NCBI GenBank assembly: GCA_000004695.1 | Contig: CM000151.3 | Coordinates: 1,920,001 to 1,984,000 of the forward strand | Direction of reading: 5' to 3' | Length of the DNA: 64,000 nt | Source: Dictyostelium discoideum | Taxonomy: Eukaryota | Shown: positions 5,752-19,413 of the stretch, piece by piece | Layout: every line of letters begins with the position of its first letter | How positions within the stretch are numbered: position 1 is the first letter of the stretch | Translations under genes and position numbers: made by a program | The notes under the pieces: model-generated | Seen by the model: only the letters and a program-made list of their open reading frames with translations | What the model was told of the DNA's origin: nothing | Database searches by the model: none

Positions 5752-8700
5752 ATGGAAGAAAAAGATCCACCCCCAATCGATTTGGAAACAACAACATCAA
5801 ATGAAAAAGAAAAAGAAAAAACACAACAACATCAAAGTGATAATATTGATAAAGAAACAAAAATCATAGTTGAAGAAGAGAAACCTAAAGAAAAACGAGA
5901 AGCTCTTAAATCAAAAGCAGATCATATCTATATATTAGTAAAAGATTATACATTCTATAAGACAGAGAGAGTATTATGGTATTTTAAACATTTACTATCA
6001 TCAGCATCATCAAATTCAACTTCAACTGCATCGAATTGTATAAAGATAACAGAAAAAGATGAAGGAATAGTTGTTTTATATTGTCTATTAGATAATGGTA
6101 AATTATTAGATTTATTTAATAATTATAATTCTATACTATCTTCAACATCAATCATTCATCATCATGGTTATCATAAAAAACAAATTACGAATGACGAAAA
6201 ACAAGATGGTGATAATGGAGAAATGGAAGATGAAGATGATGACGATGACGATGATGATGAAGATGACGATAATGAAAATATAATATTTTATGATAAGAAA
6301 ACAATGAAATTACCTTTTGTATCTTTAATACCTAAAACTCAAGTCTCTGTAGTGTCTTCAACTTATAGATTCGTATTCTCATTGGATATGTCACCGAGTA
6401 TGTCAACTGTTGATCCAATATCTGGACGTGTATTAATTGATGAATTGATTTCTTCATTGGACTCAATATTAATATCACTTTCATTACCATTGAATTTACC
6501 AAATATGAATGATAATTTAACTGTAAGTTTTATATTTAAAATTCAAACATTCACACACACCAATAATATACTAATTATTTATTTTCATAGTTTTCACCAT
6601 TAATTTATATAACAGTTTTAGCACAAGGAGTTATACCTGAACATTTTAAAGTTTTGGTTCATGGTGCAATTTTAACAAGAAAGAATGTATTATGTATTAT
6701 TAGAGATATTAGAGAACAATTAATAATATTAGAGAATGAAATCGCTTCAGCAATACAACAAAATTTACATATTGAACGTGGTATATCATCTGATTTTTCA
6801 TTAATGTTTCAAAATTGTCAATTATCATTATCACTATTACCATCTGGTGCATGTCCTCAAATTATTAGTAAGTTTTTTTTTTTTTTTTTTTTTTTTTTTT
6901 TTTTTTTTTTTTTTTTTATTAATATACGTATGATACATAAATTGTAAATATATATTAACTTTTTTTTTTTTTTTTTTAGTAATGACAGATGGTGTTATAT
7001 CATTAGCAGAAAGTGAATTTAAAATTGTAGAGAATTCAATTATGAATTTTAATAGGAATGATATATCATGTTCAATTGTACAAGTTGGAAGTGGTGCTCA
7101 TATTCATTGTGATTTTGGATATTCACCAGATTCAGAGATTCTGCGTTATTTAGCATTAAATACTGGTGGAACTTTTTTTGATCAATCAACTATACCAAGA
7201 TTTTCATCAAGAGATCAAACAAAGATTTTAGGTTTAGGTAAAAATAAAAATAATAATAATTTTAGTGGTATTTATTCAATGAATCAAAATACAAGAGATA
7301 AAGTTTATCATATTCAAAATTCTTTATTTTTAAAAGAGTTTACACCAAATAAAACAACCACACCAACATCAACATCAAATAGTAGTAATAGTTTGTCAAA
7401 TTCTGTAAACTCCACATCAAGTGGACCAATGATTAAACATTCTAGATCAAATAGTAGTAGTAGTAGTGCATCTCAACATCAATCAACATCATCATTTATA
7501 ATTCAACAACAAGCTACATATATACCACATAATTTTCAACCAACTAAATCGACACCACAAGAGAATACAACCATATCACCAGAGGTTGTAATTAATAATA
7601 TGGCAAATATTCAACAGATTATGTCAATAGATTATCCATTCCCTTGGATTGGAAAACCACCAACTGTACCATTATTGAAGACAATTGCCAAAGAGTATAT
7701 AGTTGAAGTTGACATTTTAAAACTATTGGAACTTAGAGTACGTGAAGGTTTTAATGTTAAATTGGTATCTTTTAAAAAGCCTGAATCCGAATTAGAAGTT
7801 AACTTGTATTTTCAATTTTTACCAAATATTAAATTAGATTATAGAATTAATTATTTAATTGATGGTTCATCTTCAAAAGATGATCAAAAATCATTAAGAT
7901 CCTCTTCTACTTCTTCTTCTTCTTCAAAGAGTAAAAGTTCATCATCATCATCATCATCTCAACAAACAAATTCTAAACCAAATGTAAAAGTTACAATTGG
8001 TGTAATGGCATATTATGAATTTTTAAAAGAATATACAACAGGTAATAGTGGTGGTCAGGGTAGTGGTTCATCGTCATCTTCATCATCAAAGAAACCATCC
8101 TCATCAAGTGTTGTAAGTTTACAACAATTTTTAAATCATATTTATGAAAAGGATAGATTATTATCATTGATTTATATTCAATGTCAACCATCATCAGTAC
8201 CACCACCACCAACTAAAGATCCAATTCAAGCCTATCAAACTCAAGCATCATCATTCTTGAAATTATTAAATAATTTAGGTCCTTATCAAAATTGGGAAAG
8301 ATGGTTAAAGCTAGAGACAATCAATGTATTGTTAAAACCAACTATTAATTTAAATTCAGATATGTCTTCGAATCAACAACATCAACAACAAAGTGGTCAA
8401 ATATTTAATAATGGTATACCACAATATACTATTAGTTTTGATACTTCAAGAAATATACTATTGAAATATTTTGCAAAATGGTCAGATCATACATTGAATG
8501 GTCATTATTTTGTAAAGTTTTTACCAACAACTTCTTCACCATCTTTTATTTCACCACCATTAATTTCAAATGGAAATAATACAAATAACACCACTGTCGT
8601 AACAAGAGATTTATCACAATATATGCATTTTCCATCAAGTAGTTTTTGTGTAGTTAAAATTCAATGGGAAATGAGTGGATTTGGTAATATAAATTCTTTC

Positions 8701-17700: not shown

Positions 17701-19413
17701 TCATTCTTGGATGGTGATATGAATAAGAGTACTCTAGATTCCAATGATAAAAACAAATATCCACCTCAATATTTCATTGAAATGATGCATTCAATGCCCA
17801 AGTATTATCCTAAACCACCAGCTCATTCTTACTCACATCTTTACGAATCCTCTTACTCTTTGGCTATCCCAATTAAACCGACTGAATTGTTTAGCTATAT
17901 TTGTAAGAATGCAACTTCCTATAATATTGGTAATTTAGATGAATGTGGTGTCTATCCTGCTTTACAATTTAATATTAGTCCAGGTGCTGATATTCATTAT
18001 TCTCCAAATTCTGCACCAATTGACTATCGTTGGACTTGTGTTGTATTTTGTTTAAATAATGATGATCAACCTCCTTCACCACCACAACAACAATCATCAC
18101 AACATCAACAATCTGAAAATATTGACATTAATAATAATAATAATAATGATAAAACAACTACAACAGATAATAATAATAATAATAATAATAATAATAATAA
18201 TAATAATAATAGTAATAACAACAATAATAATAATAATAGTCATACTATTGTAAATGAATCAAATCGTACAATTAAATTACAATATTTCATTGTAAAGACA
18301 GCAACTAATACACCATTCCCACGTGTTGATAATATTTATCATACACATAACAATCAAAATAATAATGCTTCATTTGGTTCAATATCTTCAATGGCTGGTA
18401 TTAATAGTGGTCATACTCATTTATCTAATCATCATCATCACCATTATCATAGCTCAAATTCTCTAACCACTAGAGTAAATTTAACACCAGTTTTATCAAG
18501 CACTCAATCTCCTTTAATACCACAAGATAGTATTAATAATCATACCCATCATTCAAGATCACATAGTCACCATCATTTATCTTCAAATAATCAATTACCA
18601 ACTCAACAACAATTATTACAACAACAACAATTACAACAACAACAACAACAATTACAGCAACAACAACAACAACAATCACATCAACAACAGCATCATCAAC
18701 AACAACAACAACAACAACAAAATAAACAAAGAAATGATGAAGATATTAATCAATCAAATAGAAATAAACTTGTAGATAGTAATGGTGGTATTAGTATTGG
18801 TAATTCAAATCCAACATCAACATCATCACCATTTATTAATAGATCAACAATGGAGCAATTAGAAAAGAATTATAGAGCAATGTCATGGGCTGAAGAGATT
18901 GCAAAACAAAGAATTTATAAATTTGTAATTGGATCAAGTGTGGCTTATCAACGTGATATGCTTTGGTTGAAACTATTAAATGGTAATCCTTATGAACCAG
19001 CGCTATCTCATCAAGAATATAATCATTTCATGAGTTTTATCAAACGTAGATCTTTGAAATCAATGGATGAATCATTGGTTGGTTCAATTAATTTCTTCCA
19101 ATATATGGGTAGTGTTTGGCAAGGTCTTAGTAGTCATTTGGTGAAAACTTGTGGTGATCGTATACGTCAACTTCATAATGACCCAGTTCATCATTTATTC
19201 ATTTTAAATCCAAAAGCAAATTGTCTAATGTTAGAACTCATTTGGAATGAAAAAGAAAAAGAAACTGATGCTTTCATTTGCAGACGTGATGATCAAAATA
19301 TTTCAAAAGAAAGAGAATTAGAATTAGATAACTTTGAATTAGAACATGCTTCACAATTAATTAATACTCTATCTCATTATTTATGGAAACAATTACTTTT
19401 AAAAAAAAATTAA
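5752..19413 (+). CDS. Giant three-exon gene (join 5752..6522, 6591..6867, 6980..19413; about 4490 aa) encoding an SZT2-like protein (KICSTOR complex / GATOR1-recruiting subunit homologue). It carries long poly-Q, poly-N, poly-S and poly-T tracts.
   Basis: Introns: GTAAGT donor at 6523 with acceptor ttcatAG at 6589-6590; GTAAGT donor at 6868 with acceptor t(n)AG at 6978-6979. Phases are consistent (0, then 1). N-terminal blocks IYILVKDYTFYKTERVLWYFKHL and YRFVFSLDMSPSMSTVDPISGR match my recollection of human SZT2 ([24 protein letters not shown] ... [22 protein letters not shown]). Exon 3 is a 12.4-kb uninterrupted ORF. Confidence 0.6.
14990..15105 (+). repeat. Coding (AAT)n array (more than 30 units) inside SZT2-like exon 3. 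It is representative of more than 15 such in-frame trinucleotide arrays in the window.
   Basis: Perfect aat repeats translated as poly-Asn. Antisense and shifted frames give the spurious poly-I and poly-L ORFs listed in the track. Confidence 0.9.

Follow-up and report, generated by a model that had tools for sequence, protein, structure and literature searches.

Background

The closest described counterpart of the gene reported here is human SZT2. In mammals, SZT2 is the scaffold of KICSTOR, a complex that keeps GATOR1 on the lysosome and connects GATOR2, and in its absence mTORC1 is not inhibited upon amino-acid withdrawal (PMC5618232). KICSTOR was called vertebrate-specific in 2024 (PMC10957897) and was extended to early fungi in 2025 (PMC11836306). 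Of the pathway that it serves in mammals, the social amoeba Dictyostelium discoideum retains the Rag GTPases and GATOR1 (PMC5745459) and possesses a sestrin (PMC11429811). The present analysis concerns a giant gene in a stretch of 64,000 nucleotides of the D. discoideum genome (assembly GCA_000004695.1, contig CM000151.3, positions 1,920,001 to 1,984,000 of the forward strand), referred to as the window throughout. The gene is an SZT2 orthologue with the full layout of that protein, i.e. an N-terminal vWA fold, conserved blocks in co-linear order and a conserved extreme C-terminal domain.

The likeness to human SZT2 (PDB entries 9o5a, 9o5d, 9o5e, 9v0j and 25ge) extends to several levels. Both proteins have an N-terminal vWA fold with the YRFV-LD-SPS...VD and ITDGV motifs, carry their conserved blocks in the same order through to the C-terminal region, and consist of one giant chain in which long linkers are unstructured; chain 9o5a_D lists only 2,316 of the 3,451 residues of the human protein. 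The Dictyostelium protein differs in being about 1,060 residues longer, 35 % of it being of low complexity, in an extreme C-terminus that is recognisable only through intermediate sequences, and in that its cellular role is one that we infer from the mammalian protein.

Results and discussion

Similarity to SZT2 along the whole protein

The N-terminal 645 residues and the product of exon 3 were each searched with phmmer against all PDB chain sequences. The former matched human SZT2 with E=2.5e-32, nothing else scoring below 0.02, and the latter matched human SZT2 with E=1.3e-27. The C-terminal 700 residues aligned to SZT2 residues 2982-3124 with E=2e-4 when searched alone and E=8.4e-9 within the whole-exon search. 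A first-pass annotation, made from the nucleotide sequence, had named the gene SZT2-like and had stated that a lack of similarity to SZT2 at the two ends would count against this name; with both terminal regions significant for SZT2, the name withstood that check. Among the matches to sequences of solved structures, no family other than SZT2 was significant. Altogether, eight matched stretches were found, which are strictly co-linear and span human SZT2 residues 74-3124 (Table 1).

The annotation had pointed to two N-terminal blocks shared with the human protein, and both do align with it, to very different extents: the KDY block yields 1.5 bits by itself, whereas the YRFV..LD.SPS...VD block (YRFVFSLDMSPSMSTVD, residues 205-221) lies within a 57-bit stretch. 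At the opposite end of the protein, the last 215 residues end 0-8 residues from the C-terminus of about 25 fetched relatives. The Planoprotostelium 'Protein SZT2' is among these C-terminal matches (E=1.6e-10 in a search of 157 fetched sequences). Similarity of the extreme C-terminus to an animal-like relative emerges only via intermediate family members; over aligned columns, identity to this relative amounts to about 23 %.

Table 1. Coordinates of the SZT2 orthologue and its parts (positions in the window; residues in the 4,493-residue protein)
Feature	Position	Strand	Residues	Human SZT2 residues	Remarks
Exon 1	5752-6522	+	1-257		start codon, KDY helix block, acidic tract, vWA strand 1 with DxSxS; aligned to human SZT2
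KDY block KDYTFYKTERVLWYFKHL	5941-5994	+	64-81		co-linear with human SZT2 (HMMER); conserved in P. violaceum
Acidic tract EDEDDDDDDDDEDDDNEN	6226-6279	+	159-176		opposite a gap in P. violaceum
vWA-like domain	6301-7185	+	184-418		spans all three exons; 57- and 40-bit HMMER stretches to human SZT2
Matched stretch			184-316	74-205	
DxSxS MIDAS-type motif DMSPS	6385-6399	+	212-216		
Intron 1	6523-6590	+			68 nt, GTAAGT...AG
Exon 2	6591-6867	+			277 nt; junction agrees with P. violaceum alignment
Matched stretch			329-418	240-327	
Intron 2	6868-6979	+			112 nt, GTAAGT...AG
Exon 3	6980-19413	+			12,434 nt including stop codon
TDG, second MIDAS-type element	6985-6993	+	352-354		
Matched stretch			581-637	385-441	
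Matched stretch			1593-1655	1284-1346	
Best-conserved central region (matched stretch)	13516-14265	+	2529-2778	2028-2249	interrupted by T-rich insertion; 29.6-bit stretch; main matching region in exhaustive search
N36 run	14992-15099	+	3021-3056		opposite a gap in P. violaceum
Matched stretch			3071-3117	2354-2400	weak
NTG array GGTAATACA x9.4	16198-16282	+			9-nt unit, encodes GNTGNTGNTGNTGNTGN repeat; within 74-residue insertion relative to P. violaceum
Matched stretch			3319-3377	2652-2710	
C-terminal conserved region (matched stretch)	17425-17931	+	3832-4000	2975-3124	
Extreme C-terminal domain	18829-19410	+	4300-4493		matches last residues of about 25 relatives

Gene structure

The window is very AT-rich (GC content 13-31 %). 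Translation of the gene starts with the ATG at 5752 and ends with the TAA at 19411-19413, and the spliced coding sequence of 13,482 nt comprises three exons with a single stop codon, the terminal one; it thus encodes an intact, single polypeptide of 4,493 residues. A terminal exon of 12.4 kb had been annotated, in agreement with the length measured here. Both splice junctions were validated by the Polysphondylium violaceum orthologue, which continues without interruption across each of them (GACPQIIIMTDGV versus GACPHIIIMTDGV at one, PLIYITVLAQG at the other). The open frame of exon 3 comprises 4,143 codons and is not due to chance, since about 9 % of random codons would be stops at a GC content of about 25 % (own calculation). 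An AATAAA motif is located downstream of the stop codon.

Several further sequence traits were observed in and around the gene. Intron 2 contains an unbroken T45 (6873-6917), and long A runs occur in the 3' intergenic region (approximately 19439-19466 and 19553-19594). GC skew on the coding strand is strongly negative (-0.13 to -0.27) between window positions 8000 and 16000, consistent with the many CAA, ACA and TCA arrays there. Two antisense open reading frames (ORFs; 11204-11485 and 13172-13525) were discarded as poly-V and poly-Y artefacts of repeat arrays.

The N-terminal domain

The first-pass annotation had likened the YRFV block to the DxSxS motif of vWA domains, and this resemblance was borne out for both fold and motif. 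Conservation of the two elements that correspond to a metal-ion-dependent adhesion site (MIDAS) was counted in an alignment of 43 family members. Of the 42 sequences that have a residue at the position of the DxSxS aspartate, all carry D; the first serine is retained in 35 of them and replaced by T in 5, and the second serine is retained in 40. Within TDG, the threonine is found in 36, the aspartate in 40 and the glycine in 39 of the 43 members. Thus D212, S214, S216, T352, D353 and G354 are nearly invariant across the family. The MIDAS threonine of the third loop was not identified in the N-terminal domain.

A structure was predicted with AlphaFold2 for the corresponding fragment of the P. 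violaceum protein, 65 % identical in the domain, from a 24-row alignment that included the three exon pieces of the window's gene. The model (predicted local distance difference test score [pLDDT] 85.3, predicted template modelling score 0.83) shows alternating strands and helices. In a Foldseek search of the PDB, the SZT2 chains of the cryo-electron microscopy entries of KICSTOR-GATOR1 ranked first (9o5d_E, 9o5a_D, 9v0j_D), superposing with TM-scores of 0.76-0.83, root-mean-square deviations of 2.6-4.7 A, 32-33 % identity and E-values down to 6e-19. They were followed by Rpn10, the p44 and p34 subunits of TFIIH, BatB, TRAP, the integrin alpha-M I domain and Ku70/80, each of them a vWA fold with a TM-score of about 0.5; the matches listed after SZT2, at E-values of 4e-8 to 5e-6, are almost all recognisable vWA domains. 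An earlier model computed from five rows was weak (pLDDT 53.8); its top Foldseek match was still SZT2, again followed by vWA domains.

At the level of sequence, the relationship to other vWA proteins is distant. A profile of the family matched SZT2 in the PDB with E=1e-90, the best non-SZT2 match being the integrin alpha-M I domain at E=0.07, and no Pfam VWA family was obtained at E<=0.1 for the SZT2-like protein. The domain is therefore a vWA fold that has diverged too far for the curated VWA models, rather than a member of a Pfam VWA family. With classical vWA and integrin I domains (TRAP, integrin alpha-M, complement factor B, Rpn10, TFIIH p44, Ku70/80) it shares the alternating strand-helix fold, with DxSxS following strand 1 and TDG following strand 4. 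It differs from them by sub-significant sequence similarity, by TM-scores of about 0.5, by the missing Pfam VWA match and by a long helical insertion that splits the two halves of the domain; its metal site is putative. In the literature searched, no mention of a vWA domain in SZT2 was found; the cryo-electron microscopy papers behind 9o5a and 9v0j, which lay outside this search, may well describe it.

Considering that vWA domains are widespread and that the KDY block alone is not significant, the locus could be imagined to encode a different giant vWA protein sharing nothing but its N-terminal domain with SZT2. The probability of this is close to negligible, as the SZT2 matches are co-linear over the whole length, far beyond the vWA domain, and none of the other vWA proteins is significantly similar in sequence, not even the best of them, integrin alpha-M.

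Orthologues and distribution of the family

In word-indexed protein searches, other queries retrieved only a same-species fragment from Logan; the repeat-stripped query alone led to orthologues. The direct orthologue, found with the repeat-stripped full-length query, is the hypothetical protein CYY_001581 of P. violaceum (3,937 residues). It is 53.8 % identical to the Dictyostelium protein over 3,818 aligned columns, agrees with it in both ends and in the order of the blocks, and itself matches human SZT2 with E=1.3e-61.

An exhaustive HMMER search with exon-3 residues 2150-3349 returned 499 relatives at E<=1e-3, 209 of which reached E<=1e-10. Relatives from Planoprotostelium, Mortierella, the chytrid Borealophlyctis, the hemichordate Glandiceps and the lungfish Protopterus are named SZT2 by their source. 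Read from the source names of sampled relatives, the family extends over Dictyostelia (Polysphondylium, Synstelium, Cavenderia), other Amoebozoa (Cavostelium, Soliformovum, Balamuthia and Planoprotostelium, the last as UniRef 'Protein SZT2'), early fungi, animals together with an ichthyosporean, Heterolobosea (Naegleria, Percolomonas) and oomycetes (Bremia, Albugo). The Naegleria protein matched human SZT2 with E=4e-53 and a Logan-derived protein clustered with the one from Bremia with E=1.9e-45; within the PDB, the P. violaceum, Naegleria and Bremia proteins match human SZT2 only.

Since the Planoprotostelium protein and some other relatives already bear the SZT2 label, amoebozoan SZT2 is known to the databases, and the Dictyostelium gene is unremarkable within a known family that is both old and widespread. 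Labelling is uneven: the orthologues from P. violaceum, Cavenderia, Naegleria and the oomycetes are listed merely as hypothetical or uncharacterised, and a member of the SZT2 cluster from Balamuthia mandrillaris (KAL6075545.1, 4,071 residues) bears the source name 'Vir like m6A methyltransferase associated', probably due to mis-annotation or a fused gene model. Full-length relatives in Naegleria gruberi, Percolomonas, Bremia and Albugo represent a much wider distribution than 'vertebrate-specific'. In the top-ranked literature on SZT2 and KICSTOR in connection with Naegleria, Phytophthora and the last eukaryotic common ancestor, neither SZT2 nor KICSTOR was mentioned.

Repeat tracts

Thirty homopolymer runs of at least six residues were detected in the protein, compared to seven in the P. 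violaceum orthologue and none in the animal-like relative. By one and the same entropy measure, low-complexity sequence accounts for 35.1 % of the residues (30 segments) in the Dictyostelium protein, 19.6 % in the P. violaceum orthologue and 4.2 % in the animal-like relative. When aligned to the orthologue, 675 residues are located opposite gaps, 577 of them in 28 blocks that are mostly low-complexity tracts and include the N36, Q/P, T-rich, NTG and acidic tracts; conversely, only 119 residues of the P. violaceum protein face gaps. The excess length over this orthologue thus consists almost entirely of repeat tracts. Identity between the two proteins is 62 % outside and 32 % inside the low-complexity segments.

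The individual tracts described in the first-pass annotation were recovered with varying accuracy. An AAT-encoded run of more than 35 asparagines is present as N36, the underlying AAT-type array comprising 42.7 units (14991-15118), and the G/S-rich repeat corresponds to the NTG array. An acidic insertion likewise exists at the expected place, its sequence having been given with one D too few (seven instead of eight). Two tracts had been overstated: the longest pure glutamine run comprises 11 residues rather than more than 30, and the supposed T13 is a T11 (14 T within 15 residues). The CAA-type arrays (32 units at 14577-14674 and 34 units at 18618-18720; 81-83 % match) encode Q-rich stretches that are broken by P, L and H. 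The description of the gene as heavily invaded by homopolymeric tracts is correct insofar as the tracts are real, but they are not special to it: run density is 6.7 per 1000 residues in this protein compared to 4.1 in the window's remaining ORFs, whose runs reach 45 residues. Because neighbouring ORFs carry similar tracts, these are a genome-wide trait.

The proteome of D. discoideum is reportedly rich in homopolymers (genome paper of 2005). N/Q tracts derived from AAT and CAA arrays are scattered through its otherwise conserved proteins, and the SZT2 gene does not differ in this respect, being only modestly above the local run density. The tracts are best regarded as recent products of replication slippage, which expanded (AAT)n, (CAA)n and similar arrays, and as being tolerated in the linkers between the conserved blocks. 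Recent change is suggested by two Logan contigs (L001 and L002, from SRR26869267 and SRR26869266, respectively), which are 98.3-98.4 % identical to window positions 5713-6893 and stem from the same or a sibling species: the acidic tract is three residues shorter in them, a length polymorphism between isolates or sibling species.

The proportion of low-complexity sequence, the error-prone assembly of repeat arrays and the length variation of one tract between isolates would also be compatible with a decaying or mis-assembled locus, whose similarity to SZT2 would be merely residual and whose long frame would have been produced artificially by repeats. This is very improbable. A frame of 13.5 kb stays open despite the stop frequency given above, the 62 % identity to P. 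violaceum outside the repeats is free of frameshifts, conserved blocks reach both termini, and the stretch from exon 1 to exon 2 recurs, 98.3 % identical, in the independent Logan contigs.

Proposed role in nutrient sensing

Based on the role of mammalian SZT2 and on the Rag GTPases, GATOR1 and sestrin of D. discoideum, the same tethering role is expected by analogy for the Dictyostelium protein, acting upstream of the response to starvation. Within a complex of the KICSTOR type, for which it would serve as the large scaffold, it would hold GATOR1, the GTPase-activating complex for RagA/B, on the lysosome and link it to GATOR2, whereby amino-acid starvation could switch TORC1 off. In a social amoeba, this switch would contribute to the response by which starvation initiates development and autophagy.

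From the presence of SZT2, the first-pass annotation had predicted an intact GATOR1/KICSTOR axis. No likeness to KPTN, ITFG2, KICS2 or a GATOR subunit was detected among the other ORFs of the 64-kb window. If KPTN, ITFG2 or KICS2 were missing or too diverged in dictyostelids, the protein could be a true SZT2 orthologue that operates without the full KICSTOR set, as a stand-alone tether of GATOR1 and GATOR2 or in a different complex. Lineages with partial component sets have been described (PMC11836306), and KICSTOR is wholly absent from flies (PMC10957897), as would be in line with such an arrangement. It is nevertheless considered unlikely. The absence of partner genes from the window is uninformative, as such genes are not expected to be neighbours in eukaryotes, and the conserved C-terminal region of the Dictyostelium protein corresponds to the C-terminal fragment of human SZT2 that was solved alone (25ge_C). 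Furthermore, the KICSTOR paper of 2017 reportedly listed homologues of all four components in D. discoideum.

Some results weigh against the interpretation as an SZT2 orthologue with a scaffold role. A Pfam-A scan of the whole protein returned no family, so that no curated family threshold was applicable; the signature of the SZT2 family is InterPro entry IPR033228 rather than a Pfam model (PMC11836306). In a plain pairwise comparison, the last 227 residues did not match the animal-like relative significantly (E=1.9). Finally, the structure modelled is that of the P. violaceum fragment and not of the Dictyostelium chain. With these points taken into account, it is still highly probable that the gene is an intact SZT2 orthologue, that its product would have the role of a KICSTOR-type scaffold and that its repeats would be tolerated slippage expansions.

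Other genes in the window

No tRNA genes were found in the 64-kb window. An ORF of 817 codons on the reverse strand (29614-32067) contains a homeodomain (E=1e-6); 75 % of its product is of low complexity, with 12 homopolymer runs, the longest of which comprises 45 residues. The ORF at 38449-38994 (+) ends within a RhoGAP domain, so that it and 37484-38380 (+) are probably exons of a single larger gene. Tandem BRCT domains are encoded by an ORF of 675 codons at 49342-51369 (+). An intact NmrA-like protein of 299 residues is encoded at 60098-60997 (-; Pfam E=2e-101), and the adjoining ORF at 62040-62885 (-) has a weak match to 2OG-Fe(II) oxygenases. The latter ORF, an 891-codon ORF downstream and an ORF of 1045 codons have no relatives in the PDB; for the product of the 891-codon ORF, no database record was found.

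Conclusions

In itself, the gene is of little import: both the protein of which it is an orthologue and the group in which it occurs are well studied, and public databases already list amoebozoan relatives under the name SZT2. Of some use are two side results. The distribution of the family, including Naegleria and oomycetes, reaches far beyond the 'vertebrate-specific' (PMC10957897) or early-fungal (PMC11836306) scope assigned to KICSTOR, and the MIDAS-type motif conserved across groups offers a target for mutagenesis in a haploid, genetically easy organism driven by starvation. Neither the wider distribution nor the conserved MIDAS-type site is an established discovery; they are leads that deserve mention. 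In view of full-length orthologues in Amoebozoa, Heterolobosea and oomycetes, it can tentatively be proposed, although the odds are rather against it, that SZT2-dependent tethering of GATOR1 is ancestral in eukaryotes and that DxSxS...TDG represents a retained, functional, metal-dependent docking site. If so, tethering would be neither a vertebrate nor an animal and fungal invention, and both ideas would be most readily tested on the Dictyostelium gene.

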